Under the pieces are notes generated by a model, which saw only the letters and a list, made by a program, of their open reading frames with translations, made no database searches and was not told the origin of the DNA. From Moniliella sp. 'wahieum' (taxonomy: Eukaryota), in NCBI GenBank assembly GCA_003971905.1, contig RSEE01000093.1, forward strand, positions 1-64,000: a stretch of 64,000 nucleotides of DNA, read 5' to 3'. Both the position numbers and the translations under genes were made by a program. Below, piece by piece: positions 1-64,000 of the stretch. Each line of letters starts with the position of its first letter. Position 1 is the stretch's first letter.

Positions 1-516
1 TTACCGCATTCGTTGCAGATGTCTTTGTGCGTGTATGGGTATTACGCATGAGGCTCATTGACTCATCAACGCCCGCCTTGGCCAAGCTGCACCTGCCCCC
101 TGGTCGTGGGCGTGTAGTTTTGCCGGCCAGCGTAGGACGCCTTTTTGTGCTGTGCACAACTGCCACCCCACGTCCCAAAACCTCCCCGATGTACTTTGGT
201 TGGCTCTGATAAGGTTCCACCACTAATCGTACCTCGTTATGACTAGTCTGGAGGTCATCGTAGTTCGCTTTTGTTCCCCATATTTCCCAACAGGTGGCAG
301 AGGCAAACGGTCGGTAGCCTCAGATCCTTGACAGGATACGGTCCATGGGAGTATGCAGAGATGAATTGCATGGGTCGAGCCCCTGCCTCGCCCATACAGA
401 GCGGGCAGGGACGGTATCAGACAAAATGGAGCAGACAAAAGGGAGCTTGTACGAAGAGCAATGGTGACGGCCGCCCAGGAGGCGAGGCGCAACAGAACAG
501 AATGTTGCGCACCTAG
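1..516 (+). CDS. Possible 3' end of an unidentified convergent gene (partial, frameshifted)
   Basis: Open frames 1-209 (..ADVFVRVWVLRMRL..PMYFGW) and 271-516, with a possible GTACCT..CAACAG intron near 229-292. The TAG at 514-516 abuts the probable HMG1 stop. No family recognised. Confidence 0.25.
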
Positions 517-517
517 A

Positions 518-3500: not shown

Positions 3501-4568
3501 CTAGAAGAACGTTGGGACCCTCGTGCAGGTGGGACGATGGAGCAAAAGCGGGGTGAGTGAAGACAGCCTTGGTCAATTTATAGTGTTTGTCAAACCCGAC
3601 AGTCACGACCAAAAATGGGAGAGCTTCGCTCAGTGGGACTGGGTCGATGTGCACACCAAGGTAGTGGGCCGAGACGAGAGCAAAAATAAATGCACAAGTG
3701 CACGAAATCAAAACCGATGCACCTGAACAATACCGAACGTTAGTCAGCTCGCCGACGAGGCGGAGACAGAGAAGAGGGCAACGTACCAAGCCAGAAGTGG
3801 AAGCCAAAGCGGCGCATCGATAAGAAAAGATTGACAAAGGTGGCATGCATAAAGATGTAGACACAAAGCATGAGAAAGATATCGGCAGAATCGGCGGCTC
3901 GGATCAGGTGGCCAAAGCGAGCGAAGAGAGCGCGAGAGGCGTAAGCGACCAAGCGAATCGAGTCAGCCTGGACTGTTACGGCCGATGAGCGAAGCTGCTG
4001 CAGGGTGCGCCCTGCGCGTGTCCATGTAGTAGGGGACATTGCAGGGACAATGCGCCAGGTGTCGAAGGGAGTGATACGTTGGACGGGGTAGCGAGCTGCT
4101 GCAGAAGCTCCGTTTCTTGAGCAGAGTCGGCCGAGGCAAACGAGGGGTCCAAGCCACCACAGGGGGCTACCCGGCAGGACATAGGGCGTAGACAGGGAAG
4201 GCGGAAGGATGTTGGGCAGCGAACGACTGGGCGAGTTGAAGAAGGCTGGGTGCTGGAGCCTGCTGGGGCAGGGTGCCGATCGTGTCGACCCAGAAGACAG
4301 GACGCACCGCAGCGTCCGCAGAGGCGCTGGCGCCAGCACGTGACCAGCCAGAGGCCGAGTGTGTCCACACAGTGGGTGGCGCGAAGGAGGGGGCGGGCAG
4401 GCCGGCGGAGGCAGCCACGGCGTCGATCCAATGGGAGCGCGACAAGGCGAAGAGGAGGGAGAAGTAGGCGAGTGTTGCGACGATGGCAACGACGACGATG
4501 CTCTCGATGGGCGTGCGGGTGGCCTGCCGGAGCAGGGCACGCGTCACACGCACCACGGGCGACAGCAT
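518..4568 (-). CDS. HMG1: 3-hydroxy-3-methylglutaryl-CoA reductase (class I, membrane-bound, sterol-sensing domain)
   Basis: N-terminal HPIH-like segment ([19 protein letters not shown]) and SSD segments ([31 protein letters not shown]). Catalytic motifs [46 protein letters not shown] and the HMAHNRS tail. Intron 3723-3786 (GTACGT..CTGACTAAC..CAG). Many frameshifts; the stop is either TAA at 518-520 or the ORF end at 223. Confidence 0.97.
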
Positions 4569-4783
4569 GAGAGACGAAGCGCTCGAGGGCGACGGTGGAT
4601 GCGGAGGCGAAGACCGCGACGAAAACGACGATGAAGACGCAAACGAAGACGAAGGAGATGGGCGATGGAGGGACTGTGGGCTGCGTTGGATGCAGATGGG
4701 CAGCGGTAGCTAGCTAGTGCACCCTGCCTGCCGATCACCAGGCCGCTCGGGGGCAGTGTAAGGGCGGAGCGGCTGCAGTGCTG

Positions 4784-4812
4784 CGTCACGCGTCACATGT
4801 CACATGTCACAG
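4784..4812. repeat. 7-bp phased TCA array in the HMG1/RPL4 divergent intergenic region
   Basis: CG-TCA-CGCG-TCA-CATG-TCA-CATG-TCA, with TCA at 4786, 4793, 4800 and 4807. Confidence 0.85.
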
Positions 4813-5861
4813 CAGACTGCAGCCGGCGCTTCCGCTCCGGGTGGCGCCGTGGCCGGTGGCAACCGGGCGCAGCCAGGGCCGCCAGCCCATGCCACGTCTG
4901 CGCTCCCGCCGCAGCAGAGCGGCGCCACGCAGCGTGTCTGCGCGGCTCCCCCACACTCGCCTCATGCTACCCCGCCCGGTGCCTGCCGGACGCTCCACAT
5001 GCTGCACCAGAGCAGCGCCACCCTTCAGCTAAACCACGCTATATATGCCTGCCATCCATGTCCAGGCCATGCCCTCCTACACCGGCGACAATCCACCCGC
5101 ACACCGTCTCTTTCTCGCAGGTGCGTCCACGCAGTGCTGCCGACGGCGAAATGATGCATCACGGGCTTTGAACCAACATCGCCTTTGCTAGCCACAGCTC
5201 CTCTGCGTCCGGTCCACAGATCCGTCGTTGACGCAGCAGTGCTCACCAAAAAGATAAGAATGAGGTCCTGACAGGCGAAATAGATGAGTCAGTGCATGCG
5301 ACGCTTGTTGGGTAGTTGAGCTTTTCGGAACCTCCAGGCTACATCAGGCACAACACTCTGCCCGATCCGTCCGTTACAGCCACGGTAAAAGAGCCAGAAG
5401 GAGACGTTGGGAGCTGGGACGGCTGGCTGCATCATCCAACTGGAGGATTCACCGGGAATGGGAGCAGCGAGCTGGTTTCCCTCCACCTCGTCCACAGGTG
5501 CCAGGCTACAAATCATACGCCACATATGGAACGAAAGTTGAGCGAAGCAGGCTGAGGTGCCCATGCGGGGAAGCCAGCCATGTGGAGGTTGTGATTGATA
5601 TTGAGCGCCAATGGCAAATCACCGTGTGCGTAATCATTAATCACCGAGCCAGCATGGGAGGGCATCAATATTCACTAGGGTTGTTCCCTGGGCGCAATGC
5701 GATTTCCGCAGCGCCAGCACTGCCGCAGTTACTTTCGCAGTGTAGGCACGGCGCCGGTGTCCGACGCGGCTGCCCCGCCGAACGGCCGCTGGTGGCCGGG
5801 GGGGTGGCAGCTGGCAGCGTCGGTGACGGCCTCGCCACCAAGCAGCACCTTCTCCAACATC

Positions 5862-6985: not shown

Positions 6986-7397
6986 ATAGTCCCTGTGGTC
7001 TATTGATGCTCGTGGTGGGGTGTCTCATGGAATGATGGGACAACCTGTGCCTCCCTTGTCTGTTGGATGATCGGCTGGCGCACATGCCCATGGCCCTGGT
7101 GAGGCGATAATCAAGGCCTGAGCACATGCACATGCATATGTTGCACTCCCCCCAAAATTGTCCCGACTTGGCTGTTCAGGGGCGTTGGCCACCCTTCTCT
7201 CGTGCCCATCCATAGACCCATACGTAACTTGCTGAGTGCGAGTGTTAGTGCAGCTTGAAGGAAGCTCGTAGTGGCACACAGCCCTGGCCCATCCGGCACC
7301 ATTACATAATAGCCCGTACTGTCTTACCGGTTACCGATGGATATTGGATTGTCTTGTTCTTCTGACCGGCAGCCCCACCTTCACTTCCATCACGGTC

Positions 7398-14145: not shown

Positions 14146-15550
14146 GGGAAAAGTGTGGGCGGAAATGTGCACGAGATGGAGTGATATGGACGGTAAATGG
14201 GCGAAGGTTCTTGTTGAAGCTTGGTGCGAAGGGGGCTAGGGAGAAGCTTCAAGGTTCGAGAGTGGGCGTCGGGCCACGGAAGGAAAGCACACGGCACACC
14301 AAGTGAAGATCTTGTGCGAATTGGCTGCTTGCTGGGTCGGGCAAAGCGGTAGAGGGACGAGAGTAGGGTGCGGGTGTTTGAAGCGGGAAAGAACAAAAAG
14401 AGGTGTGGAGTCGGGGGGATGTTGCCTCTTATAAATAAACCCGCGTCAGAGAGAATTTTGGGAGGCCCGCCACGCACACTCCTGCTCAGAGACAGAGGGA
14501 GGCAAGAGGCAGAAGGCACTATAGTTTTGGCGTGTGGCTGTGGGATTAGGGAGGCGACTGGACAGTGCACGGATGAAAAGGCGGTCTCACGCAGCGCGCA
14601 CGCAATCTTACCCAAACCACAGCAGGCAGATGCCGGCTGTAAGCGCTACGATCTAACAGGGCCTCAGGCCTCACGAGTGCCTCACGGCATGTGCTGACAC
14701 CTGGCAGGCCTGGGCGCTGCTGGTTAGTGGTTCCTGGTCCCGCCGCTTCGGCAAAATAGCTCGCACCACGGGACAAACGGATACGAGGCTGGATGCGGGG
14801 GCACAGGCGCCGTGCCTTGGACCGGAGGTTCAGCGCCTTGTGGGAGAGGAGGAGTGTGGCCAGTGTGGTGAGACGGTGACCGGTGACACGCAATCATTAA
14901 TCATCGATGATCAATTTTTGTTTTTCTTTTTCGCTCGACACAGTAGAGTCACCAAGCCTTTTCCCCCCTTCGGCCTTAGAGCGTGTCTGCGCCGATGGAT
15001 CTACTGTCCATGTCCCCGCGCATCAATCAAAGGCACCGAGACGGCGCTGCTGGCAGACGCTTGAACTTCCAGCTTCAAGCCCCCTCCACCACGCGCCATC
15101 CTATACTTACTGCACCCAACGCCATAGCCCCCCTGCGGTATATGACCACACCCACACCCACTACTGCCATGATGCCAGCCATGCCATTCTGGACGAATCT
15201 TGCGCGGCGAATTCATCCCAAGTAGTGTGGAGCGCGGTGCCTCAGACTTCAAGGGGCCATATATTTCTTACCGAGTCGCATCCTACTACTTTTACGAAGC
15301 TTTTGTGGAGACAGGGTTAAAACTCGTGTAAAGCCACAGCAATAATCAACTGTGGATGCAGGTTTGCCCATAGGTACGAAATGCCCACCGAGGGATGTGA
15401 TCGGTACACCAACCGAATGTACAGTCTTGTGTGCAGCACAGGACTGGGGGGCGGGGTCAACGTGTCACATGTCAGTCAACTTTGGGGGAGAAACGAGCAC
15501 GTCATTTGTTGGAGCAAGACACGAAACGTCCTCCAACATACCTACGGTCC

Positions 15551-15790
15551 TGAGATCTGAGATCTGAGAGGCCCTGAGGCCTCCTGGGGCTGAAGCCGCC
15601 ATACTGCGGCCAGAAGCCCGAGACCCTGAGACCTAAGAGGCTGATGAGGCGTTGAGGCACTGAGGGGTCCTCAGTTTTGGCGCATTAGGGGCGGCCTCCG
15701 CCTGAGCAGGCCTCCTGGTCGGTCACACGCGGGTCACGTCGACCTGAAGGCCTGAACGTCAGCTTGAACTCTCTAGAGCTTGAACCTGGA
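15551..15790. repeat. Intergenic TGA-rich low-complexity tract (TGAGATC x2, many TGAGGC/TGAAC units)
   Basis: TGA-GATC-TGA-GATC-TGA at 15551-15567, followed by repeated CTGAG/GGCCT/TGAAC words. Confidence 0.6.
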
Positions 15791-16769: not shown

Positions 16770-18945
16770 TCAAACCGAGAGCTTAGCCAGCTGCTCCTTC
16801 AGCTGCAGCAACTCTTGGACGCTGGCCTCGACAGCCGCCTGCTTGGAGTCATCCGCTTTGGCTGCCGCCTTAGCCTCGCGCACGGCCACGCCCTGTGCTT
16901 CAATCTTGGCCTGCAACGCCTTGGCTTCGGGAGTGTTGGGGATCTTGGCCGCCGCCGCCGCCTCTGCTTCCTTTTTGGCCTTTTTCGCAAGCTTGGCTGC
17001 TTGTGATTTACTCAGAGCCGGTTTGGCCGTCTCCTCCTTGGCTTGAGCTCCGCCAAACTGGGTCCGCCACACCTCTTCCATTTTGGGATCGATGGGCTTG
17101 AAAAGGTGCTTAGGCTTGCCGATCGTGTGATCGGCCAGTAGCTCTGGCGGGGCCCAATGGCCGATACCACCCTTCTGTCCGGCCTCTGGGGGAAGGGGTA
17201 GAGCCCGCGTGGTGCGTTGAGCTGAACCAAAATGTCATTGGCGGTCGACGGCATAAAGGGCGCAACGACGGCACTGAGAAGGTAGATGAGGCTGACTGTC
17301 GCATGAACCACGGCGTTGCACGTGGTGGGATGCTCGACAAACAGCGCCTTGGTCAGCTTGGACTCGGTTAAAAACAGGTTGCCCCGGGCCGAGATGGCCA
17401 TTGCGGTTTGAAGCCCAGCGCGCAACCGGGCCGCCTCCATATGGTCCGCATACTGGCCCAGCAGCACATTGACGTCCTTGACCAGCGCCGCGTAGAGCGC
17501 GCGTGTCCTTCGGTCTTGGCATCGGTAAGCTCGGCTGGAACGGGAGGCAAGATCCCTTGGTAGTTCTTGGCAACAAATGTCAGAACGCGGTTGACAAAGT
17601 TGCCCAGATTGGCCAAGAGTTCATTGTTGTTGCGCGCAATAAACTCGGCCCAGGAGAACTGGGAATCCGCCGTTTCAGGCCGGTTGGCCAAGAGATAGTA
17701 CCGCCATACGCTGGCCGGTACCCCTGTCTCGGCCGCCTTATCACCAAATACTCCAACGTTGCGGCTCTTGCTGAACTTGCCTCCTTCGTACTGGAGGTAC
17801 TCGGTTGTGCTTGATGTGCTGATCGTTGCAGTTGGTCCACTTGTCCTTGGTGCCAATCAACGTCGAGGGGAAGATGACAGTATGGAAGCGAACATTGTCC
17901 TTTCCCATAAACTGGTACAGCGACACTTGCTCCGGGCTCTTCCACCACGCCTCCCATACCCTCGGCGCATAGTTGGCCGTGATGGATGGATAGCCAATCG
18001 GTGCATCGTACCACACGTAAAATACCTTGTCCTCGTACCCGGGCAATGGCACCTTCACCCCCCACTTGAGATCACGCGTCAGACTAAACGGTCGCAGGCC
18101 TTCCTTAAACCAGCTCTCGGTAATGTGGACAGAGTTGCTGCTCCAGCCTCCTTCGACGGCCGCTTGGCGCGCCCACGTCTCGGTCGCTGGTTGGAGCAAG
18201 TCGATGCGGAGAAAGATATGTTTGGTCTCTTTGGGAGCTGGGGTCGAGTTGCACGTCTTGCACGCGGATGCTTCAGCTCCATCGCATCGTACAAGGAGCC
18301 ACACTTGTCGCACTGATCGCCACGTGCATCTTCGTAACCACACTTGGGACAAATTCCCTCCACGTAACGGTCCGCCAGGAAGCGCTGGTCCTTGTCGCAG
18401 TACAGTTGGGTGATGGTGCGCTCCTCGACAAAGCCATTGGCATGGAGCTTGAGAAAGATGTCTTGGGCAATTTCGTTTGCCACTCGGTCGTGGTGCGGCC
18501 AAAATAGTCAAACCCAATATCAAACCAGTCGTAGGCAATCTATGAAGGGCGTGGTACTTATCCACCAGCTCCTGTGGCGTCACACCATCTTCCAATGCTT
18601 TGGTTTCGGGTCGCCGTGCCGTACTCGTCCGTGCCACAAGTACAACGTGTTGCGGTTGCGCGAGCGGCTTGTAACGAGCAACACATCCGCACTCAACGTC
18701 GATCCAATGATGTTGCCGAGATGGGGCACATTGTTGCATAGGAAGGGCGGAGAGGTGATGAGACATTGCGCTCGGCATCGCGGCGCTCCGCAAGGGCACC
18801 GAGGAGGAGGGTGGGAGAGATCTGAGATCTGGTCGGCGAGACTGGGCCGTATACTTGGCTGGTGCGACGGAAGGCGCACGTACTGGGGACAGAAGGTGGG
18901 GGTCGTGGGAAACGGGGGTGAACGGGCTGGCGGAGAGAGAGCCAT
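16770..18945 (-). CDS. MES1: Cytosolic methionyl-tRNA synthetase with C-terminal WHEP domain
   Basis: [17 protein letters not shown] (HIGH), [28 protein letters not shown] zinc knuckle, [30 protein letters not shown] (KMSKS), [13 protein letters not shown]. Probable short 5' intron at about 18829-18883; many frameshifts. Confidence 0.97.
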
Positions 18946-21735: not shown

Positions 21736-23416
21736 ATGTGAAGGAGGACAATGAGGGGTGGCGGCGGGGGGAAGTGGGGTGGGGGTTGCATTTGGGGGAG
21801 AGGGTTTTATACGAATATGAGGATCGGCTTAAACGATAAACGGGGCGGGGTTAGGAGGCAGGTGGGAGCAGGGGGGATAAACATATGAACCGTATTCTGC
21901 TCCGATCGTGCGGAGGTGAGGGCATATAGGGAGGGCACACAAAACCACAATAATACCCTCAGAAAGCGTCCTCCGTCATATTCGGCAGCGTAATATATGC
22001 GGTAGTAGCCGACGCTACCACCCGCACAGAGCTGATGCGTATCGCTCGACAACTATTTCCCTGCCATCCCATCCCGCCCGCCACAGGCACGTCCCCTCCC
22101 GGACCCATCAGTAAATCTATTCCGTCCTCAATTTTGTCAGGCCCAGGCCTCGTCAGGTACTTCGGTCAGAGTGTGGGGCACTCATTTACCCCAGCATATG
22201 CTAAGCCATAACCCATCATCCATCCCCATCATATTATCGCTGATGTGCCGCGTAATCCCCGCTCCAGCACGGACCACTGCGCCGTTCTTAGTGGCCCCCC
22301 TCTGTCCAGACCAAACAAGCCCTCCTTTCCCCTGAGGCCTGATGGTCTGATGCCAGACCATGCCAGACCCCGCGTTTCGTCCCTGGCGTTGCGCAGCAGG
22401 TGCTGAGTTGGGGCTATATTTGCAGAGTGCACAGCTGGCAGATTAGCGGCAACAACTATAAAACCCACACACACACTGCACCTCCCCCAGTGGCCTGACC
22501 GCCGCATAACGCACGGTAGTAGTACTTGGTTAAGCTATTTGGTTAGCACCCGCCCCGCGTGTGCCCAGTACCGCCTTCCGTCTCCCTCGTCGTCATTAAC
22601 AGCTCATTTTTGCTGCACAGGGCAAAGCAAGAGTCCGCGGCGTTACGCGTATAGTACGTCTGAATCTGAGCATAGAAGCTGCAGTGGCCACAGTACCCCG
22701 CACTGCATGTCCTCGCCCTCCGCATCACGCGTGTTTAAGAAATAAGGCGTTTTTATCCAACACATCCCGGACAACTATCTACCACTTCATACAAAAACGC
22801 TTTGCCAGCCCATTCACCCACGATACTCTGGAGTTGGTTGTATCCGTACAGTATGCCTGGTTGGAGGAGTACATCGAGCGCGACTCGATGATTTATCCCG
22901 ATGCCGAGAGAGTGGCCCTGGCTTTCTAGAACTGCCAGCAAAGGAAATGTGAGGCAATAAGCCCGGTAGCGTGGGAAAGGGCAAGGTTCTCCATCGCTAT
23001 ACTATACAGCCAAATGCACCACAGCGGGGGAGGAGAGCGTGTCTCTGCAAGGGAAGGCACGCTGAGGGTGCCGTCCAGGAGTAAAAGGGCTAGCTTCTCA
23101 CCCCCTATAACCGCTACTCAATCTCCACTATATATGGACAAAAATCAACAGTGGGACGAGGGATCAGATCCATATAGGAGCCTTTTCCGTCGTACATTTC
23201 CACATTCGATGAGTTATACGTACCACGTTAGGTCCTGCTTCAGATCCTGGTTGAACCGTCGAGCGGGTGTAGAGGCAAGGGAGAGACCCTCTAGTTTGGG
23301 TGGCTGCCTGCGTCCAAAGACCGCGGCTCAAACCCTCCGAGGTAGGAGCCGCGTACGTAGGTCTTAAGACCAATTGAAGGGGTCCGGGACCTCCGAAGTT
23401 ACTTTGTTCCTCGCGG

Positions 23417-23793
23417 CGTTACCACACCCGGTACGCTGTAGTAGGCGGGAACAGACAGAGTCCTAAAGAAGAGCAAGCGCTACAGATAGTAACCGCAGCT
23501 TGCGAGAATGGTCGACGCAAGTCGTAAATTTGTAAGAGTAAGGGTGAAGAGTGGAGAGAGAAGTCGGGGGGAAGACTACATGGGTTGGGCGGTGAGGATC
23601 ACTGCCAGCAAGCCTCAGACAGGGCTGCTTATATACCGTAACATCAAAACAGGCATTAACAGAAGGAAGGGAATCTTAGTAAGAGGTAAAGGGCGGCCTG
23701 TTATGACCGTACTGCGATCTTCTGGGTGCAGTAGATGTGGGGTTCTACCAAGACTGTACGCCGCGGATATAAGTCCGGTCATTTCCTGTGACG
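23417..23793. mobile_element. Putative small insertion relic (solo-LTR or MITE-like)
   Basis: Ends CGTTAC...GTGACG (imperfect inverted repeat), flanked by CCTCGCGG (23409-23416) and CTTCGCGG (23794-23801). Internal TATA-like GTATATAAG on the minus strand. Confidence 0.3.
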
Positions 23794-23838
23794 CTTCGCG
23801 GAAAATAGCCGCGACAAGTTGTTCGTGCTGACTGTTAC

Positions 23839-24018
23839 TGTCATAGTTTGGCTGATCTCGCTCCCATTCCAATTTCTTCGTCTCGATCGTCTCGCTCCTT
23901 CCCTGTTCCTTCCACTTCGCACCATGTCCTCTGTTCTTGCTTCTTCCCCACGAACGATTGCTACACCCCTTGACCTAGTCCGATCCTGGTCTCCCTCGCC
24001 TTAGCCCCGACTGTGACA
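23839..24018. mobile_element. Solo LTR (copy A), 180 bp, with perfect 5-bp target-site duplication
   Basis: Starts TGTCA and ends TGACA, with GTTAC on both sides (23834-23838 and 24019-24023). Its reverse complement aligns with copies at 24154 and 25765. Confidence 0.85.
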
Positions 24019-24153
24019 GTTACTCACAAGTGTCGCGGGGCTGGCGTGTGCTTCCATGAAAGGTCTACGAAATGGGGGGTTCGGTGTCCGGAGATGCACG
24101 GAGCGCCCCAACATCACAAAATCGTTGAAATTACGAAGAACCCACACCACAGT

Positions 24154-24428
24154 TGTCACAGTCGGGGCTAATAAATGCGAAGGAAGAGACCTGAGTCGAG
24201 ACTAGATCAAGGAATGTAGCAATCGTTTGTGGGGACAACTAATAAACAACAACAAGGGCAGAGGATATAACGGTCGATTTAGGCGTAATAGCGTTTCTCT
24301 GTTCTGGCAGCCTTATGCTTTGTCAATGATATGGATGCACAGCGGAAGAACAGAGATAAAGAGAGCGATACGTTCGAGACGAAGAAGTTGGAAATGGGCG
24401 TGAAAGATCAGCCAAAAACCATATTACA
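24154..24428. mobile_element. Solo-LTR-like repeat (copy B), diverged, inverted relative to copy A
   Basis: TGTCACAGTCGGGGCTAA...GTAGCAATC...CGAGACGAAGAAGTTGGAAATGGG...GATCAGCCAA...TTACA. About 90 bp longer internally; no clean TSD. Confidence 0.7.
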
Positions 24429-24479
24429 CCACCCTTTTGTACCCGAACGAGGGTAGCTATATAGGTGTTGACGGCCGTC

Positions 24480-24960
24480 GGTTGCCAAGAAGCTTGAAGC
24501 TGGAGCTCTGGAACCGCGGAAGCTTTTGAAGCTTGAAGCCTGCGTTGCACGATAGGGGCAAGATGCATGTGACACGTGTGCCCATGTGGCGCTGTGGCCT
24601 GAGTGTGACAACCAGAGTCCAGACAGGGAAAGGACCGAAGGTCACATGTCACATGTGACGGTGACATGAACATGAATTCCACATTAAGCGAGGTTATATA
24701 ACCGGTAACCGGTAGGCGCGCGTAAGCGCGTAAGCGCTAGGTGCTAAGTGGTACCGGTAACCCGTACCTGTCACATGATCACAGCTGTCACATGTCACAT
24801 GTACATGTCACACGCGTTTGGCTTCTGTGTGTCACAACACTGTCACGCGTCACCCGTCACGCGTCAAGCCCCATCGTGTCATCGATCATCGATCATCATG
24901 CATCATGCATCATACATCACCGACCAACGCTATAAGGCCCTTTATCGATTATCGATGATC
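24480..24960. repeat. Dense cluster of 7-bp TNA/palindrome mini-arrays
   Basis: TGA-AGCT-TGA (24527), TCA-CATG-TCA-CATG-TGA (24642), TAA-CCGG-TAA-CCGG (24699), TCA-CGCG-TCA (24843), (TCA-TCGA)2 and (TCA-TGCA)2 (24879-24912), TTA-TCGA-TTA-TCGA-TGA (24942). Confidence 0.85.
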
Positions 24961-25764
24961 TGAGAGTTCTTTTCATGCACAGACGCTGGCTCTTTCAGTC
25001 AGAAAAGGCGACCAGTGTAAACGCTGTAATCTAGACGTCCTGGGTCTCCCTCCATATCAGTCAATGTCGTATATAGCTCCAGCTGAGCTCGGCCCTGAAG
25101 GGCTCTCTGAAATCAAAGGTCTTTTTGGCGCCGGGCAAGTGCGTGTGGTCGTCGAGGCGGATGATCGAAGAGAGATGACGGAGATATATGACATGGTCGA
25201 GAGGCTAACCGTGGTAATCTAGAACCACGGGGGGTACCGATTATAGTAACGCTATAGATAGTGAAACCACAGCAGCAGTAATAGCACGCAAAATTGCGTG
25301 TACCGCTTCTGGGCTTAACTTTAAGGCTTAACGTGTGTTTTTAACGTTTAACATCGAGATATGGCGCACATGGTGACGATGAAGACGACGACATTCGTCG
25401 ACATCATGCACATTTTACCCCCATATCCACCCATTTTGGAGAGTCTCCACCGGCCACCTAACATCGTCCATGGGAGACGGATGAACGCAATGAAGGTGAT
25501 GAACAAAACAAATCTTGACCGTTTTGAGGGACGGTTGCCGGTGACCGGTGTGACACATATGTGACCCTGCGTTTTGGAGTGCGTTACTTTTGTGGATGTG
25601 GCTGGCACACACGTCGAAGGTGTGCCATACCTAGTATGTGCTGCAAGCTCCAACACAGAAGTGAGTGCATTAGTGCGAGAGCTGTAGCAGAGAGGGCCAC
25701 GAACCATATCCTACGAGAATTTTGGTTGTTGCGGCGAGGGTACCTTATGCTGTGCTCCCAACAT

Positions 25765-25950
25765 TGTCACAGTCGGGTGGCTAACGCGGGGGACGAGAAT
25801 TGGGACTAGGCCAGGGGGTGTAGCAATCATTCGTGGGGAAGAAGAAAGAGCAGAGGACACGGTGCGAAGTGGAGGAAACAGGGAAAGAGCGAGACGCCCG
25901 AGACGAAGAAATTGGAAATGGGAGCGAAGAGATCAGCCAACCTTATAACA
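25765..25950. mobile_element. Solo-LTR-like repeat (copy C), inverted relative to copy A
   Basis: TGTCACAGTCGGG...GGGGTGTAGCAATCATTCGTGGGGAAGAAG...GGTGCGAAGTGGA...GAGATCAGCCAA...TAACA. Colinear with the reverse complement of 23839-24018. Confidence 0.8.
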
Positions 25951-25995
25951 CCCACACACATAAACTACCGGCGCCCAGGCGATGGGTTTCTGACA

Positions 25996-26369
25996 TGTTA
26001 CGCCCATCACTAGGACCGCAATATATAGGCCGCATGGTGCGGTTCCTATCAGATTTGAGAGATCCAATACCGACTTCTCACACCTCATACCTCACAGCTG
26101 TGCTCCCTTCCTTTCTGGCAGCTGGCAGTGAGAGGCAAATACACTTCAAATCGTCCCTCTCGGTAGATTGTGTAACCAGTCCACCTGCCTCTCCTTCCTC
26201 CATCTCACATTTCTTGGGGCACATACCTGCATTCGCTTGTTTTACATGGATGGGCTTGGGCGTAGTGGTGTGGTGTGTCTGCATCAAGATATTTATGTCG
26301 GCGTCGACGTTTGCAGCTGTATCTGCCTCGACGTGCATACATATGTGACTGACTCCTGTGGGCGTAATA
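25996..26369. mobile_element. Putative second-family solo LTR
   Basis: Begins TGTTACGCCC and ends GGGCGTAATA (9/10 inverted repeat of a TG..CA terminus). No TSD seen. Confidence 0.4.
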
Positions 26370-26454
26370 TGTAAGACAATATCCCCGAACAAATCAACTG
26401 GGTGAGACCCCCTCTTGTATGCACTGGACCACTGTTGCATGTTACCACAGATCC

Positions 26455-26865
26455 AGTGACTAGTGACGCGTGACGGGCAAACATGACCTCAAATGTCACA
26501 CTGCCCCCATGCCTCCCGCTTTCACTATTTCCCCCCAAGGCGCCCAGGCCCTCACAGGCGAGGTGCGAGGGCTGTGTGTTTTAAACCGGACATACGAGCA
26601 GAGTGGACCGTGGATCAGTGGGTCGGACCGGGTTGTTAGTGACTATAGTGACTTTAGTGACTAGCTAGTGACTAGTGATAGAGTGATCGTGATCTGACTT
26701 ATCTGACTAGGCCGACGACTAGGACTATGGCTATATCGAGGTGGAATCTAGTTATAGATACTGGTACTGAGTACACTGGAGTAATACTCAGACTGTGTAC
26801 TGAGGGTACTGAAGACGTACTGAGTACTGTTGAACGTTGATGCATGATGCAAGATATATGATACT
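26455..26865. repeat. TGA/palindrome mini-arrays (AGTGACT, GTACTGA, TGATGCA units)
   Basis: AG-TGA-CTAG-TGA-CGCG-TGA (26455-26473), repeated TAGTGACT (26637-26678), GT-TGA-ACGT-TGA-TGCA-TGA-TGCA-AGA-TATA-TGA (26829-26861). Confidence 0.8.
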
Positions 26866-27579
26866 CGAAGCCTTTCAGGCCTCGTACACCTAATATGAGA
26901 GCACCGGCAATATGCACCAAAAGAGGCTCGTATGTACTCAAAAAAAAGCACTTCGCTCAACCTCTCTTGTTCTGGTGCGCGTACCTGACAGCATTAGTTT
27001 TCGTGCTTATCTTCTCAGTCAAAACAGATCTAAACCTGTGTGTGCAACCCTCCTCCGTTTGATCCGCCCGTTTCAGAGACACGCCCACTATCGAGTATCC
27101 GGCACGCCCTGACGCATGACCCTCTGTCCTCGACCGTTAAGGTATCTTCCCCCGTTGGTTACTGTCCCGACCTAGCAGTCAGCCAAAAACCTTGATCAGC
27201 ACAAGGTTCAGGGACTCGTTTGCGGGGCTTTTCACGTATACTACCACCCTTCCACTATACACTGACGTCATCTGTACTGTTACCCGAAGGGTCAAAAGGG
27301 TCAAAAGAGGGTACCCGCTTTTTGGGAACTGGTTCCGTTCCTGCTCCACAGATACGGGGCCTGTCTCGCCCCAATCTCAAGAGAGCGGGGTTGTGACCCG
27401 TGGATTGTTCACCTCCTGGAGTGGCTTGGGAGAGGAAAACGAGGTGCTGGTCAGTTCCTTGCGTTCATCCTTGTCGGACCGGGGACCTATAACAAAAATG
27501 CCAGACCCTTTTCCCCCTCCACCATCCGATCCCACCGCGTCTTCCCCTCTCTCCTCGCACCTCCTCTTCTTTCCCCTCC

Positions 27580-28780
27580 ATGGGCCACATCTCCGATGTA
27601 TCCGAGGAGATTGAACATGCTGCCGCTGTCGCCGAAGCAGCGGCTCGCCAAGCCAAAGTCTCTTCCTCCCGGTCGCCCCGGCGTTTTCATCTGTCCACTC
27701 TGACATCCTCGATCTTACGCCACCCCCAACCGCCTGACCACCAGGCTCCGGTGCCAGGATGGACAAGCATCTCGGCCTACGATGTTCTCTCTCGCACCGC
27801 CCCTGAATTGCGTCGAAGTCAGGGTACTTCAAGTCCAAGTCCAAGCCCAAGTCCGAGTCCAAAAAGCATTTTTCTTGGCAAGAGACGCCATGCGCCGTTG
27901 CCTCTGACCCCGATTGACCCTTGGGAGTGCGCTGAACCGATCCAGCTCCCCAGCCGGTCGATCAGCCCAATGACCTGTTCTTTTGACACTCGCCGCTCGG
28001 CAGCTCCAGTCCTGCTTCCAGTGTGACTGGGGAGGGCAACCCATCGCCACCATCAATCTCCTTTAGCTCCTCCTCGGCCGACTGTCTGTCCAGTCCGCCG
28101 TTGAAGTGGCCGCCATGCTCGGGCTTACCTTTAACCCGACCGCATGGGAGGTGGCCGCCACCTCACCCGACGGCTCGCCGGCTTGCACCTCATGCGACAT
28201 GGATTGCACAGTGCGGCGGGGAAAGCCAACACGGTCGCTGCGCAGAGTCGATCGTGGGTTGCCCCATCCTATCCCGCCGGGGGACCCTGAACAGAACTCG
28301 ACGGCCCTGCTATCTCGTCCACCTCAGCACGCCTCGGGCCTCCCCATCAACCTGCCCTGGAGCGATACCCTGCTCCGGTTCCCTCTGCCCCCTCCGACCT
28401 CAACCGCAACCTCACGAGCCCACCCGCCCTCATTTCCCCCATCGTGCCTAGCACCCACCCATCAGGACCATCTATTAAACGAAGTAGCAAGCTACGCACT
28501 TTCCCCTCCCGCCCCGGTCCCCCTCCTTCCAGCCCCCTCCCGCCCATCCCGCATCTGTCGCAGCACCGTTCCGGTAGGACTCATAACCCACCCTCAGCTG
28601 ACCCGCTCCGGCCTTAGCCCAACGTGGCATGACGAACGTGTATACACTCCTTTTGGGGCGGGTTCTTTTTGTCGTGTGGCGCATGCGGTTGCGGGCAGGT
28701 TATCAGTCTGTGGTGTGTATGTGGGCGGAGGGGAGAGGGGACAGGAATCAAGAACGAGTGACAGGCGGACTGATGATTGA
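27580..28780 (+). CDS. Hypothetical Ser/Pro-rich disordered protein
   Basis: ATG after a CT-rich leader and a TATAAC at about 27488. Consecutive ORFs 27580-28026, 28023-28451 and 28106-28780; 3' end uncertain. Confidence 0.45.
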
Positions 28781-30521
28781 GGGTATCGAGTTGTTCGTGA
28801 TTCTTCCGATGCTTCTCCGCGGCGCGCTTGGCGCGCCCAACATGACTCAACAAAACGAGAGGGATCAGCAATGTAAAAGGTATTTTATTGTGATGTTGAA
28901 GAGGATCTGAGCGTCTGTGGAGATTTTGTGGTGGGAGAGAGTTCCTTTGACAGTCCGGCTGCCACGCTGGCATTATATTCCCACTGTGCCTTGCCCTGGT
29001 GCCTGCACCTGTCTTCCTTGGTGCATCAACAGCTGTTTCTGCCTCTTCTCTGTGGCTCCACGACCGACACTGCTTCAGCCGGTCCGTAGCTGGAGTGCCT
29101 CCATGGTCAGTAAGGGGATCACGTAATCAACGGCGGCCTGTGTAAGGTTTACGTTCCTTTTGTTCCCCCGCTCGATTCATTATGCCTTCATCGATCATCG
29201 ATCATCATGATACCCGGCCCAGCAGACCTAGAAGTCAGGCCGGTCAGGGCAACGCAAGGACAGCCACAATTGACCACCACCGGCTATGCGGCAGCGCTGG
29301 TAGTGAGGATCAGAGCGAAGACCCGAACGACGTTGGAGCGCGAGCGAGAGATGCGATCAAGAGGAATAGGAGAGTGCATTGGTAAATTAACGACCCCTCT
29401 GCGAAACGCCAAGCCCACCAACTGTCATGCATGACATGCATCATGCATGCATCAATCTCGATTTTGGTTGGTATTATTCTGGGCACCGGGCATCGAGCAT
29501 CAGAGCAAGGCTTGGCAGCTTGGCACCACCCTGGCCCGACCAGATCGCAAAGCTTACTGCTACGAGGACGCCCACAACCGGCAACCGGAAAGGTATACCG
29601 ATCGGAATTACAAAAAAGCCTAGAGGCCACCCGGGGCCCTGCCAGGCCCTGCCCGAGTGCTCCTTGCTGACTTGCCAAGGCCTGTGCCTTGGTGCGGACG
29701 CGTCTGACAGGCACGGCGTTCGCGCTGGCTATAGCGTAGGGCAGAGGGCGCAGGGAGCTTGTCGGGAAGAAGGCGAGTAGGCCCGGTGTGCTGTGGATAC
29801 CGAGAGAGGCAGGATGGGATGGTAATACGCGTGGGTGGCGGGTGTATCTGCCGTGGGGGGGAGGTAATGGAGGTAATCGCGGCATGGCACATGGGGCCGC
29901 AAGAGACCTGGGTGGGCGTGTGGCCCAATGGACCCGCGATCGTTCGGCGCGTACGCTGGTGGCGCCCGTTCGCGTTCGGGCCAGGGCGGAGGCTCATAGT
30001 GAACGAGAGTACGTTGAACGAACGCTGGCGGAGCAGCGCAGCACTCCAGCACTCCCGCACTGGCCAGCGTCCGGGGGCATCACGTGAGCCATGGCCTCGC
30101 CCGGGCCAAGAACCGATTAAGAACCCCAGCACTCATTAATCACAGATCACCGATCAGTAGCATCCATCATCGATCTCATCTCATCGATCATCGATCCCAT
30201 CGATGCGGCCGGTGCGTCGCATGGCATGGGTCAGGGCGGCCGCGCAGGGCCAGTGTCGGGCGCGGGGGCTGCGCGGACGCGGGGGCGCGGGGGGGGCAGT
30301 CTGGGGCTGCTGGGGTACGCACCGCGGGGGAGTGCTGCGGGCACAGGGCCGCACAGGGCAGAGCCGCCCCGCCATCCTCTGTCCTCCATCCCCCATCCAC
30401 CATCGACATCGCCCCGCCCCCCACCACGCCAGCCTGCTGCCTGGCCAGTCGATGGCCCGCCCACCCCGCCCTTCCCACCGCCAGTGCCAGTACCTGTGCC
30501 AGTGCCCCCGCCCCCGCGTCC

Positions 30522-35957: not shown

Positions 35958-37008
35958 ATGCCGAATGGGTCTGTACGGCGCGATTCGCTTTCCTGGGACG
36001 TGACTGTTGAACGATGGAAGTGGAGGGGCTGAGAGACTTTGGCTACTTGCAATACATCGATTTCATCTCTCTACTGGCAGAGCGGTCTTGGCCGGGGTCA
36101 TACGAAGGGGGGGGGAGGGTACTAAACGCTGCGCAGTAACCTGGCCAGGAAAAAATGGTAGTGAAAGGGCAAGTGGGAACCCAAGAGAGTGTTGTACACC
36201 ATTATTGGCCGTGTTAGCTTCGCGCTAGCACAGCAGTCATAGGCTGTCAGGATCGAACACGATGAAATGGACACCGTGGCTCTGATTGAATGGTACCGTG
36301 ATGTGTGGACGAGAGGATCTCAGCTGCGCTGGTAATCAGGTAGCCTGGACATGTCCCCTTTTGCTCTTGTCAGCGCTCAACAAAGGTGCAACCTGTCGTA
36401 GTACCCCTCCTGCATCGTCCACATCGATGTCATGGAGCATGGCATGCATGCAGTTGACTTCGCTTTCAGCGTCGGGCTTGTTTGGCCAGGCTTCAATGCT
36501 GCGTCTTCACCCCACCCTTGGTTCCTGAAGCTTGGTGCTCTCGCCATCGCATCTGGCTCCCTGTACGCCGATGCAACGAGAAGGAAGCGAGACGCAGGAC
36601 GAGGCTGCTTAAGCCGTGCCTGTCCGTCTGTCCTTCGAGATCCAACACCCACTAATGGCAGCGGCGACCCAAGGCGTACTTCTCGGACGCACCTTGCCCT
36701 GCTCTTGGCCTATACAAACGCACAAGACGGCATCCCCAATTGAACCAGTCTGATGAATCTGAAGCCGCAGCCCATAGACACCGAATGACGTCACTCGGCT
36801 GCACCCGACTGGGGCGGCTGCGGCCGCCTACGTCATACGCGCGTCACAGTGCCCGGCCGTGCGTGGGGCGTGAGGCGGCGGCAGCACCTGCACACTGGCG
36901 TGCTGCTGGGCTGCGTCCGCGCGCTGGGGCAGCCACGTTGGCCGCACCCGCTGGATGCCGCGCACGCCCTCATCCGCCCTCCATCCCCACCACCCACCGC
37001 CCGTCGCC

Positions 37009-38846: not shown

Positions 38847-39309
38847 TTGCATACTCTCTCAGCATTGAATATTGATTACTGGTTTCTTTGAGGCGCCCCT
38901 CCCCCACACATCGATGGAGCCGGCTGGATTGCTCCTCCTCAGGTTGTCTCCTGCTGTTCGCCCCTGTCCCCACGAAGGACTTTGATGCCTTTTTCGTATT
39001 GCCTCGAGGCCACAAGGAGCAGTGTACAAGTGAACTGCATAGCAAAATGATTCTCTAACTAATGATTCACGGACCAGATAAATTTTATGAGTCCAGCACG
39101 CTTAATCAGCGCTCAGCAACCCATGCTCAGCAAGCCAAGTTGACGGGTCGTCCCTGTGTAAGATTTAGAATTGGTATGCACCTTGGAAGGGCCAAGGCGT
39201 TGAGGCCTGAAGCCTGAAGGCCTGAAGCCTGAACAAAAACAATAAAACAAAAGGATAATTGACGATTCGATAAACCCACGCTCCTCTTCTCACCTGCCCA
39301 CCACCGGTT

Positions 39310-42496: not shown

Positions 42497-42769
42497 GGGG
42501 ATGGGGGGGTCTCAACCATAATTGGGGAGACGGATGGTACCAGGGAGAGATGAGAAGCATTGGAGTCATCCAGAGGCCACAATAGGGGAAAGAGGAGAAC
42601 AAGGTAATACTTGCACTAAACTGGCAGGTTTAGCATTGTACGATGAGTGAGAAAGCTGGGGGGATGGGGGGTCTCAACCACAATTGGGGAGACGGAGGGT
42701 AATTGACATTGGAGTCATCGAGAGGTCACCAAAAGGGGAAAAGTATAGAGCAAGGCATCACTTGCACTA
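42497..42769. repeat. Diverged tandem duplication of a 110-120 bp unit
   Basis: 42497-42618 and 42660-42769 share GGGATGGGGGG(G)TCTCAACCAYAATTGGGGAGACGGA, CATTGGAGTCATC and ACTTGCACTA. Confidence 0.85.
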
Positions 42770-44336: not shown

Positions 44337-45509
44337 GATCTCGTTATGAGGCGACTGGGTAGCGGGTAGGTCGTAAGGTGACAGGGCAGCGGGTGGGTGA
44401 GGGGATGGATGGATGGTGGTGTTGAGGAGGAGGGCGAGAAGGGGAGGGGCGGCCCTATTCAGCTGCATTGGATCGGGAGTCCGTCACAGGTAGAGAAAGC
44501 ATATCATGCATCATGCATCAATACCCCCAAAAATAAAAATACCCTGTTTCAGTCTGTGTCCCACATCGAGGGGGGGTGGGTTAGGGCGTGACGCGTGAGG
44601 GAAGTGTACTAGACACCCACACCCTCCTTGGGGTGTCGGCGCCAAGCCGGTCGCACGCACTACGTAGCAGGCCCGTGCACATGATATGCGCGTGCACATG
44701 CCACACGTCACCCGGCCACCTACTGCCGACGCTTGTGTGCAGGGTGCGCTACTGTGCGGGTGGGCCTGGCCAGTAGGGTGCCCTCGGCCAGACGCTTGTG
44801 TCCGGCGCTGCAAGCGACATGCTTCACAGCTCGCACCCCTGCACGGGCCAGGAGCACATCGAATTGCACGTGACGCGTGACACGAGAGTAAGTTGAGGCC
44901 GACGCCGAAAGAAGCCCAACACCAGACAGCCTCCCCTTCCTTGTCTGTCCTGTGCCCTCCCTTCAGCCACTTGGCCGCATGCTCGTGGCCCCACTCCATC
45001 GTCTGGTCGGACAACTGAACCTAGTACTACTCCAGTCCCGACACTGGACACGCACTCATCACGATCTAATAATGGAATTCTCTGATGGGACGGGACTGTG
45101 CCCCGGTTACTCTGTTTTGGAAGCGGTAACCACACAGACACTTTCCTTCGAGAGTGTCAGGGCGCTGTCCTCCCCCAGACGGAGACCCCACCAGGGCATC
45201 AGATGCTTGACGCACGATGCCCGACGGGTGACACCAGCCCGGATTGGATCTGGACGGGACAAAAACGAGACGACCTCAGGCAAAGCATCCGTCGAGACAA
45301 ACTGACGTGCATATATAATTGTGGGTATTAGCATGTTGAGGAGATCCAATAAGGGTTATGGAAGAAGGACCTCTGGGCGGATGAAGTATATAGGTGCACC
45401 ATGTACACCTTACTTTGGTGTGCCAGGCAAGTGTTTCGTCCAAGAGGTCGTTCCATGCTGGAGAGTAGAGTTGGTCATATAGATACGGAGTATGATAGAG
45501 TAGGGTTAG

Positions 45510-53451: not shown

Positions 53452-53506
53452 CACTGGCACTGGCACTAGCACTAGCACCAGCACTAGCACCAGCTAGCAC
53501 TAGCAC
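53452..53506. repeat. Hexamer microsatellite (CACTRG/CACCAG)n
   Basis: cactgg cactgg cactag cactag caccag cactag caccag ctag cactag cac. Confidence 0.9.
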
Positions 53507-54545
53507 ATTGTAACCGCTCCCCTTGGCCGCACACGCACAGCGGCCCCGTGCCGCGCCCGCCCTCCCAGACAGCGCGCGTGCCCGCCACTCGCCTCGTCCG
53601 AGTCACCCACTGATTCTCCTCCGCCTCACCGATGGATCGGTCCATCCAGCGTCCGGGAACTGCTTCCCCGTTCTGGCCTCAAAACCATGCGTTCCGCGTC
53701 CCCCCGTCAAACTCACCCCAACTCGTCTAGGAACGCCAGGCGCCCGTGTGGCCTTGGCAGGTCGCGTGGTCGCCGCCAGGTTCCTCGTCCGCGTGCCAGC
53801 ACGCCAGCACGTCAGCCCGTCAGATCAGTATCATATATCAGTCCCCAAATTCCAAACGTCCATCTGTCGACAGCGCTTCTGCTCTGCCCTGCGACCCCCC
53901 TTCCACAGAAAACAAAATTATCTGTACCTGCGCCGCTCCTCCCGTAGGCCTCCAACGTCCAACCCCACCCTCCCCAGGCGGTTCAAGACCATTGGTGGGT
54001 GACGATCATCGGCCGGTGCCTCGCACGAATGCGGGTGGCGGTGCTGGCCTGGCCAGTCTTCTGCGCCGTTCCACCGTATCCGACGCCGCCCACGTGGTCC
54101 ATCTGCGCATGGCCAGTGGATTGGGGGTGGACGAGGCGGGGGCAGATAAGGGCCTAAGGCCCAGGGGGAACTATGTGGGCATGCGGTGCAAGCTTGCTTG
54201 CAACGAGGGCCATTGAACCAATCCCAACCAGATGCGCTAGCAAAACCCAGGACAGAACAACACGACCCCCAAAGCAACCTGCGTTACGTCAGCACACTCG
54301 ACTCGGCGTGCTGAAAGAAACGGGAGGAAGCAGGACTGAAGTTTGAACGTTGAAATGCAGCTGGGGGGGAGTACATACAGGCCTTAGCAGCTCTATTTCG
54401 TCGATCGTAGAGCTTAGCTTCGATCGCAGAACTTATCTAGCGCAGTTGCAAATTAGTTTTCATCCCGAAGGGAAGGGAGCCGTGGTTGTTCATCGACTTG
54501 GTCTCGGCTTCGTTTTCTCAGACTTCCGCAAAAGCGACCCAAAAG

Positions 54546-60436: not shown

Positions 60437-60610
60437 GGCTGTGTTGCCGGATGCCCGATGTGCGCCCAGCCGAGCGGTGGTGGTCGCCAGAAGAGACGCC
60501 GGCCTCCGCCGCCCGCTGCTCCGTGCCCGCCAGTTCCGCCGTCCCACCCGCACCATTCTCACGCCCATTCCGCCAGAGGGGTGGTTTGAAGCTTGATAAG
60601 CGCTCGCCTA

Positions 60611-60753
60611 TCACATGTCGCACACCACACATCACACGTCACACATCACACATCACACATCACAGCCAGTCTGGTTCCCTGTCGGTGGTCACGTGTTGCT
60701 CCGGCGTCATATCGGCCGGTGGGGCTGCAACCGGCAACCGGCAACCGGCAACC
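60611..60753. repeat. 7-bp phased arrays in the SCAP/kinase divergent promoter
   Basis: TCA at 60611, 60632, 60639, 60646, 60653 and 60660 (all in one 7-bp phase); (CAACCGG)3 at 60728-60748. Confidence 0.85.
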
Positions 60754-62221: not shown

Positions 62222-64000
62222 ATGATATCGATCGAGTTCAGCCTGCTGAACTCTGAAAATGCATTTTTCTCGATTGTGCTAGTCAGACGAGAGTCTCCCA
62301 CTAACTTGAACGGGTCTCTGTCGACGTCAGGGAGAACGTGATAATAGGGCCCGAGACCCGGGCGAGCGAGCCCAACAAGGAAGACCCAACATGATCGAGA
62401 TGCGAGTCTAAATTTGCCTGTTCGCCCCACCTTCAAGTGGAGGGAAGATGGCGGTTTATTCGTCTCGTTTTCGCTCACCTCAATTATGGGAGCAATACAC
62501 ATATGTTTGCCCAACCATAACGCTTACGAACCAAGGCGAAGCGACGCCCTGGATCGGAAAGGGTGTGAAGCTTGAAGACAGAGGATTGATTGTTACTGCG
62601 GCTTGGCCGGGCTGGGAAATTGGACGAAGAACCACCTCTTCCTCCTGCTGGCGTCCGTTCATCTCGTCCATGTCTTCCGCGTCAATTTCGCGCTCAAGCA
62701 CTTCGTATTCTACACACTCCCCCCCAATAACTCCTGAGCCAACCGAAGTGTACGCTGACCAATGCTCCTCGCTCGGCTCCGACCCAGTTGCAAGTCGCCA
62801 TTCCTGCTCATGCCATCGCCCTATATAGGGAGAGAGGCAAAACTACCCGAGTGGGCCTGCGAGCCCAGTGTAGGATTCTATGGGTGTGTTAGTCCCATAT
62901 TGTCACACTGGTGCGTCCACGCGTCCCCCACAGGGGCGAACGTCGGCGGGCAGACCACGGAGGGGGTCCCCCATTGTATAGCTCTTCACACCTATTGCCC
63001 GACGCCGCGGTGGGAGTGCAGACACAACATGCGCGATGTCTATATGAGGCCAGGTAATTAGTGAGCGAAGAAGTCTAATGACACAGGCAGCGGTCAATAT
63101 CGTCAACGTTTTTGTCAACAGACGCCGACAAGACGGAAGGGGGTCAAGCTTCAAGGTCGTACTTAGCAACAGTCACTATATCTAGGCTACTGCAGCCACT
63201 TTGACTACTCGACCGTTTTTAAAGAGCGGGGCAGGTGGGGTTGAGCCCAACCCTAACGCTAACGCTGAGAGTGCGTCAAACGTAACGCGTTAACGGACAA
63301 CCGGTAAACGTAACCCGAACCAATGCTAAGCGCTAACGAGAAAGCAATTGCACCGATCACGTGCTATTGCGTCACAATCAATGGCACCAACAGGCGGCCG
63401 ACGGGTATAATCACCTGGTCACTTCATCGTCACTGCATCCCTCTTCTCCCTACTGTTTTTGCTTCCAAAAACACAAGATCGACCACCCCGATCGCCATCC
63501 CCCCCATTGACTGGGCCCCCACCAGTTCCCACGCCAGCCGCCTCGTAGCATGTGTCTGGCACCCCATTGGCATGACATAATGTGACACACGACGGGCTAC
63601 CCTCCCGCAATAGAGTTGTAAGGCATCAGCATCACCTCGCCCCACACAGGCCCCATCCCGCATGCACCAAGTCGCCCATTTGACAGAGATGACCACCTTT
63701 GGGTACAAGAATTCATCCTGTGTCTGTGCTAGCCGAACCCGAACAACGCTGAGCGCTGAATCCGCTCTGTCTCTCGTTCACGTCATCGCGTCATTATCGA
63801 GTCGCTCTTCATAGTCAACGTTCGACGTACAACCTGTGTAACGCATGCAATAACGGAAGGCGATGACCGGGGGCGCGACCGGAGCGAGCCCTCAGCCGAT
63901 CCGAGAACAATCTGAGAGCGTTCTCCTGTGTTCCCCTCTCGGTGCAACATGCACCGCACACTGTCTGTGAAGCAAAAAGCCACTGTTTATGACGTTCATC

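Follow-up and report, generated by a model that had tools for sequence, protein, structure and literature searches.

The 64-kb window analysed here, by which we mean the whole stretch of eukaryotic DNA (about 58% G+C), carries pairs of identical TNA triplets joined by a four-base palindrome far above chance, and in most of these joints half of the palindrome is the reverse complement of the two bases lying just outside the pair, a relation that we call the flank rule. The interpretation that we favour, and to which we would give slightly better than an even chance, is that the joints are stacked excision footprints of a cut-and-paste element, which duplicated a 7-bp NN-TNA-NN target on insertion and on excision left flanks closed as flush hairpins, with one of the two resulting overhangs being kept; the agent of these scars is one that we infer rather than see. 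The genes of the window look fungal, although what they show with certainty is a eukaryote, and include those for HMG-CoA reductase with its sterol-sensing domain (226-4700), the 60S protein L4 (RPL4), an M76 peptidase, an amino-acid transporter and methionyl-tRNA synthetase, as well as a fimbrin-like CH/EF-hand protein, a sterol-sensing-domain protein and an APH-type kinase. The 791-aa open frame at 58266-60638 has Sterol-sensing and Patched matches, which, with HMG-CoA reductase, places two sterol-sensing-domain genes in one window; a metagenome scan with this frame returned no relative. A GC3-based coding mask did not tell the known exons of the window apart from its other ORFs.

Identical TNA triplets at a spacing of four bases (same-N TNA-N4-TNA) number 98 in the window, as against 22-56 for the other spacings within k=0-10, and their spacer is a 4-bp palindrome in 50 of the 98 cases (51%, where 1/16 would be expected), with the corresponding proportion in the 15 other classes of triplet, defined by their first and last bases, lying between 1 and 12%. 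Chance was represented by 200 dinucleotide-preserving shuffles in 1-kb blocks and by Markov simulations of order 3 and order 5, the latter giving values close to those of the shuffles. The shuffles yielded on average 36.6 pairs, 2.1 palindromic spacers and 0.27 spacers obeying the flank rule, with maxima of 59, 6 and 2, respectively, compared with the observed 98, 50 and 42. The three expectations of the initial annotation, namely that TNA pairs are enriched at a spacing of four, that their spacers are palindromic far more often than one time in sixteen, and that the flanking dinucleotide predicts the spacer, are all borne out in this window. The same signal emerges from exact period-7 runs of at least 14 nt, of which there are 31: the unit is an odd palindrome in 21 of them and is centred on TNA (NN-TNA-N'N') in 19 of those 21, and no excess of odd-palindromic units was found in the window at periods 4-6 or 8-12. 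A natural control was provided by 80 metagenome loci encoding RPL4 relatives (278,513 bases), which are too distant for intergenic alignment and therefore serve as a control for composition only; they contain 437 pairs, 41 of them palindromic and 10 obeying the flank rule, mostly in AT-rich DNA, and the three nearest loci (26.9 kb, RPL4 protein 73-74% identical) contain 16 pairs, none of which is palindromic.

The 50 palindromic links are organized into 41 arrays, 33 of which have two triplets, seven three and one four, and there are hence eight sites with at least three copies, where iteration at one site is seen, in agreement with the iterated process that had been proposed from the first reading of the sequence. 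All four central bases are represented, the array triplets being TCA (21), TGA (15), TTA (3) and TAA (2) against a background of 895, 846, 295 and 346, respectively, and 14 of the 16 possible 4-bp palindromes are used as cores, with AATT and GTAC missing from the exact arrays and GTAC being present in irregular copies at 26763-26829. The flank rule holds for 42 of the 50 links, from the left flank only in 19, from the right flank only in 17 and from both in six, with eight obeying neither, so that the earlier description of a 5-bp duplication accompanied by two nucleotides of reverse complement is accurate for these 42, and left-derived and right-derived scars are in balance (19 to 17). The central base, in turn, is copied directly: 45 palindromic links have the same N in both triplets (27 C,C and 18 G,G), and only four have complementary ones (three C,G and one G,C). 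Single-copy NN-TNA-N'N' words (197 of 2380, against 5.9-7.2% palindromic words for other centres) are not enriched, which indicates that the palindrome arose in the event itself, together with the duplication, instead of being chosen beforehand as a target. Taken together, the flank-templated spacers, the same-N links, the variety of cores and the lack of enrichment of solo words support the initial reading of the arrays as a mutational scar.

Two further properties bear on the geometry of that scar. Among the 40 cases of the form XYTNA-nn-XYTNA, the mirrored dinucleotide comes from the TNA-distal end of the copied 5-mer in 22 and ambiguously so in three more, and among the 34 of the form TNAZW-nn-TNAZW it does so in 23, whereas it comes from the TNA-proximal end alone in none of either set, which gives a distal total of 48 against zero. 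In the rarer period-8 variants, the extra base matches Z, the base that comes next in the left copy, in all four left-rule cases and is Y in one of the three right-rule cases.

Along the window, the arrays begin between the HMG-CoA reductase and RPL4 genes with the four-copy CG-TCA-CGCG-TCA-CATG-TCA-CATG-TCA-CA (4784..4811), followed by AA-TCA-TTAA-TCA (left rule) and CA-TCA-ATAT-TCA (no flank rule), each with two copies, at 5632..5676, by TC-TTA-CCGG-TTA-CC (7322..7335, right rule) and by five arrays upstream of the amino-acid transporter gene (14662..15569, with starts at 14662, 14875, 14892, 15463 and 15549). The arrays had been described as non-coding, which is not confirmed for all of them, the exception being GA-TCA-CGCG-TCA-GA at 18070..18083, situated inside a Pfam-matched methionyl-tRNA synthetase exon; this array does not follow the flank rule, is probably a chance palindrome and makes a useful internal control. 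Next come CC-TGA-GGCC-TGA-TG (22331..22344, left rule), the densest cluster, with 10 arrays in about 430 bp (24525..24953, with starts at 24525, 24640, 24697, 24786, 24841, 24855, 24877, 24894 and 24940, and with AGCT, CATG, CCGG, CGCG, TCGA and TGCA as cores), and TT-TTA-ACGT-TTA-AC (25339..25352, right rule). The two arrays on which the initial annotation was founded, AG-TGA-CTAG-TGA-CGCG-TGA-CG (26455..26475) and GT-TGA-ACGT-TGA-TGCA-TGA-TGCA-AGA-TATA-TGA (26829..26861), are both as written there, the second being exact for its first three TGA triplets only, since its fourth triplet is AGA, a decayed or variant form; all 17 of the further coordinates listed there were recovered among the 41 independently scanned arrays. 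The first of these two arrays reads as the product of two events at an ancestral AG-TGA-CG, with CTAG derived from the left AG and CGCG from the right CG.

To the right of this region lie arrays at 29186 (three copies, TCGA), 30131 (TTAA, no flank rule) and 30179 (TCGA), which together span 29186..30192; TG-TCA-GCGC-TCA-AC (36368..36381, no flank rule); and arrays starting at 38864, 39104 and 39199 (38864..39233), which are accompanied by period-7/8 copies of CCTGAAG(G) at 39205-39233. This last group follows closely on the 3' end of the fimbrin-like gene, in an interval between apparently convergent genes, so that promoters are not the only places in this window where scars are found. The remainder are found at 44502 (three copies, TGCA), 44587 and 44869 (both CGCG; 44502..44882 overall), at 53829 (TATA) and 54342 (ACGT, no flank rule; 53829..54355), at 60585..60598 (TT-TGA-AGCT-TGA-TA, no flank rule) and at 62564 and 63142 (both AGCT) and 63325 and 63748 (both GCGC; 62564..63761 overall). 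Repeats of other kinds are also present in this half of the window, namely adjacent direct repeats with a period of about 150 bp at 42497-42743 (42497-42594 versus 42659-42743, 81-88% identity) and a hexamer repeat, (CACTAG), with about 9.5 copies and 82% matches at 53452-53506.

The stretch of about 6 kb at 21900-28000 has a lower G+C content (0.50-0.54), holds no ORF with a match to any Pfam family, and contains a repeat of about 170 bp in three diverged copies along with both of what we call scribble zones, the densest cluster at 24525-24953 and the interval flagged initially at 26455-26861. The repeat, which starts with TGTCACAGTCGGGG and ends with GATCAGCCAA, lies at 23850-24018 (-), 24154-24410 (+) and 25767-25935 (+). 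Its first two copies point apart with 135 bp between them, its first and third copies form inverted arms (115 nt, 90% identity), and copy B contains insertions that are 7, 12 and 65 nt long; no clear target duplication could be seen around the repeat, for which a solo LTR and a MITE are the candidate kinds. Alignment of the three copies in search of copy-specific +7 insertions gave a single 7-nt gap, in copy B, which does not conform to the rule.

Within the second scribble zone, TGA-centred copies at 26638..26709 repeat AGTGACT with fillers AT, TT, AGCT or none (spacers CTATAG, CTTTAG, CTAGCTAG and CTAG), after which TGA recurs at irregular spacings of 5, 3, 2 and 6 nt, and copies of GTAC-TGA follow at 26763..26829 (GTACTGAGTAC, then AC-TGA-gg-GTAC-TGA-agac-GTAC-TGA-GTAC-TG), which amount to left-rule palindromes with two and four extra bases. 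For AGTGACT, the fillers AT and AGCT correspond to one and two mirrored bases per flank, and TT fits incompletely; with TGTCACA-TGTACA-TGTCACA at 24793 in the densest cluster, palindromic targets thus provide a series of one, two and three mirrored bases per side (AGTGACT-AT-, AGTGACT-AGCT-, TGTCACA-TGTACA-), fillers that fit variable nick positions. Other fillers between 7-mer repeats, in TCTGACT-TA-, CCTCACG-AGTG- and AGTGACT-TT-, do not fit mirrored bases. Heptamers of further types occur as well. CTGGCAG, an odd palindrome centred on G-G-C and not on T-N-A, is tandemly duplicated at 5805-5818 and 26115-26128 and may represent either a rarer target of the TNA process or an unrelated motif, and the non-palindromic (ATCACAC), with about eight copies at 60610-60664, and (GCAACCG), with about four copies at 60727-60753, occupy the interval between the genes for the sterol-sensing-domain protein and the APH-type kinase. 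The unit of the former is centred on TCA, and this repeat could be a 7-bp duplication that was left unmodified and then grew by slippage.

Staggered cutting with fill-in is required for a direct copy and a hairpin for an inverted one, and insertion followed by excision supplies both. Insertion of the putative element would proceed through a 7-bp staggered cut centred on TNA, leaving NN-TNA-NN duplicated on either side, and on its excision the transposase would close each flank as a flush hairpin, as the even palindromes suggest. Nicking at a distance of 2 nt from the apex, of the kind that fungal Pso2 performs, would then leave a 4-nt self-complementary 3' overhang on a duplex ending at TNA, the overhangs being ZW-W'Z' on the left flank and Y'X'-XY on the right flank; whichever overhang was ligated first would be retained, with the other becoming an unpaired 3' flap that would be trimmed back to TNA. 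The predicted product is XY-TNA-Y'X'XY-TNA-ZW or its mirror image, with a net gain of 7 bp, and it is this form that is seen in the sequence. The new left-hand TNA would lie in a perfect palindromic target, so that at a later visit the overhangs would be cohesive, which would favour repeat visits and could account for the eight multi-copy arrays, with slippage perhaps adding copies. The proposed target is 7 bp and not 5 bp long because of the distal-end test, the left/right balance and the period-8 bases, and the symmetry of a TNA-centred 7-bp target explains why mirrored bases come only from the distal end. Two features of excision footprints are present, since the target is directly duplicated at the joint (the same-N links and the excess at k=4) and the extra bases are inverted copies of the flank, that is, P nucleotides (42 of 50 links against 0.27 in shuffles).

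Several observations count against this excision-footprint reading. Among the 1097 pairs of identical TNA-centred heptamers lying 40-9000 bp apart in the window, none encloses an element with inverted termini (at least 9 of 12 matches), and a comparison of the window's stop-to-stop ORFs (259 with a length of 110 aa or more) with transposase, integrase and reverse transcriptase families gave no match at E<=1e-4. For a stretch that has no copy of the agent, a density of 41 arrays in 64 kb is high. Unaltered 7-bp TNA-centred tandem duplications, which the proposed duplication would lead one to expect, number only four. A joint consisting of an intact copy and two mirrored bases (spacer 6), which the model predicts, has no case in the window, and the double-overhang joint (spacer 8) is seen once, at 26658, in a palindromic target and hence ambiguously; the trimming away of exactly one overhang is put forward as a proposal. 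The eight links that fail the flank rule and the misfitting fillers TA, AGTG and TT likewise weigh against the model.

How such a system might relate to known ones can be judged from several comparisons. PIF/Harbinger elements, which duplicate 3 bp of TNA or TWA and usually excise precisely, had been named initially as a model, but a 3-bp TNA duplication on its own is not enriched (TNATNA occurs 35 times at k=0, and the pairs number 31 at k=1 and 30 at k=2), and the source of the 4-bp filler lies in bases beyond the triplet. A footprint of transposon-end bases in the style of Tc1/mariner was rejected because the core follows the flank. The TNA joints appear to work like P-nucleotide joints: hairpins are formed on the flanks by hAT, Transib, MULE and RAG enzymes, according to excerpts from PMC5499845, and excerpts from PMC3299998 describe Pso2, the fungal relative of Artemis, as nicking hairpins on the 3' side at 2 nt from the apex, just as Artemis does, and as being required for the repair of Ac excision hairpins in yeast. 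As in the P nucleotides of V(D)J joining (RAG and Artemis) or of Pso2-dependent repair, in so far as the same excerpts describe them, the palindrome here is even and has the flank end as its axis, its 2-nt arm is of the length that nicking 2 nt 3' of the apex would give, and one or both sides may carry it (PMC3299998). Unlike those joints, the joint in this window adds a direct duplication of 5-7 bp, its outcome is nearly invariant and without untemplated bases, and it is found in a microbial germ line at dozens of sites per 64 kb.

The footprints of hAT elements (Ac/Ds in plants, budding yeast and Candida albicans) share with the scars a retained target duplication, repair of flank hairpins and short flank-templated palindromes of a few predominant types, as the portion of PMC5873905 on footprints has it, where two stereotyped types make up 53 of the 128 Ac/Ds footprints in Candida. 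By the same account, hAT palindromes have an odd axis on the complement of the element-adjacent base and an 8-bp duplication (PMC5873905); here, by contrast, the axis falls between bases, N is copied and not complemented (45 versus 4) and the net gain is 7 bp. The scars do not have the form of a canonical hAT footprint, as defined by that portion of PMC5873905 and by the chemistry of Hermes, whose hairpin apex is offset by a nucleotide, given their even axis and a centre N that is identical in both copies. Transib and RAG-like elements (the CMCT clade) resemble the scars in that a flush flank hairpin gives an even P-nucleotide palindrome, but their duplications are given as 5 bp for Transib and 2-5 bp for the clade in excerpts from PMC12730594. 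A symmetric 5-bp model of this type, which amounts to the plain 5-bp duplication with a symmetric hairpin of the initial reading, predicts that NA would be mirrored as often as XY; the mirrored bases are TNA-distal only, which contradicts it (zero against 48).

Elements with a 7-bp duplication, the length proposed here, are recorded in Basidiomycota in excerpts from PMC12730594, namely hAT7 in Pucciniales (rusts) and Kyakuja in Laccaria and other Agaricomycotina. Kyakuja is described there as lacking inverted ends, and for both families the text and supplement, in those excerpts, give consensus sequences and no target sequences or footprints (PMC12730594); no such element lies in the window. 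T1 of Cryptococcus deneoformans offers a parallel of a different kind, being a low-copy cut-and-paste element that moves frequently in culture, with 41 of 46 new insertions intergenic, as stated in excerpts from PMC9942834. In contrast with the scars, T1 has no conserved insertion-site motif by its authors' report in these excerpts, which give no footprint data for it, but it shares with them the intergenic bias and illustrates how few copies could leave many scars over time, which makes a dense scar record without a local copy plausible (PMC9942834).

Four other explanations deserve to be weighed against the element. A host or domesticated hairpin-forming nuclease that recuts TNA in accessible intergenic DNA, with hairpin repair writing the additional 7 bp and no mobile DNA taking part, is unlikely in our estimation, if conceivable: the palindromes and the flank rule speak for it as much as for a transposon, the window contains neither element nor transposase, and the strong clustering (10 arrays packed into some 430 bp, 24.5-25.0 kb, and the eight arrays of three or more copies) would suit it. 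A break hairpinned on both sides, however, duplicates nothing, and the direct copy of 5-7 bp needs a filled-in stagger, which is exactly the cut that an insertion step provides; no nuclease is known to produce both a 7-nt stagger and hairpins in one reaction. We give little credence to a template switch during replication or repair at TNA, in which two bases would be copied backwards and five then copied again in the absence of any programmed cut. Such switches could in principle yield both inverted and direct copies and need no element, in keeping with the window's having none, yet neither switch is supported by microhomology, and the TNA specificity (1-12% palindromic spacers in other triplet classes), the fixed lengths of two and five, the strict choice of the distal end and the absence of the pattern from 278 kb of other eukaryotic loci (10 flank-rule cases among 437 pairs) are all left unexplained.

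Microsatellite slippage, with hairpin-prone palindromic heptamers expanding preferentially, merits even less credence. The eight arrays of three or four copies could have grown in this way, and non-palindromic heptamer repeats such as ATCACAC (eight copies) and GCAACCG (four copies) do exist, but 33 of the 41 arrays have only two copies, so that it is the first duplication that needs explaining, the units differ within an array while the rule is kept (26455, 4784), palindromic heptamers in single copy, the would-be seeds, show no enrichment, and palindromes are not in excess at periods 4-6 or 8-12. A slippage microsatellite would have an arbitrary unit unrelated to its flanks, whereas the unit is NN-TNA-N'N' in 19 of the 31 period-7 runs. 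Hardly credible, finally, is the phased protein-binding code suggested initially as an alternative, that is, arrays of palindromic binding sites maintained by selection. The arrays are located in intergenic DNA, as such a code would have it, and their TGAC/GTCA half-sites presumably resemble bZIP sites; against it stand the spacer that neighbouring bases predict in 42 of 50 links, the lack of any excess of single sites, the presence of arrays in the probably convergent gene interval at 38.9-39.2 kb, and the use of 14 of 16 different cores and of all four central bases, where an array of transcription-factor sites would be expected to have one conserved core.

In open-access papers and preprints, we found no published description of a genome-wide pattern of this kind, and the distal-end test, the hAT geometry test, the natural-sequence control and the explicit overhang model are new to this analysis. 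To return to the excision-footprint reading, we raise as a tentative possibility, one on which we would not yet rely, that the window records an undescribed and very active hairpin-forming cut-and-paste system with a 7-bp TNA-centred target, which has visited intergenic DNA so often that its scars are a main source of heptamer repeats in this genome. Such a system might be either a family of elements or an enzyme that has been domesticated, and transposon excision would in that case act as a regular generator of new short tandem repeats and of promoter sequence, with every visit left on record as a fossil. If the excision-footprint reading itself holds, the target and chemistry of an element family would have been defined ahead of the characterisation of the element itself. 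The near-invariant joint, with its one 4-nt palindrome, would be a natural read-out of fungal hairpin opening and of the joining of incompatible 3' overhangs, processes that to our knowledge have so far been followed in reporter constructs only. Excision repair, and not polymerase slippage, would seed many gene-adjacent short tandem repeats, and the scars would constitute a record of transposon visits, dense and datable, in DNA that now lacks any copy of the element.
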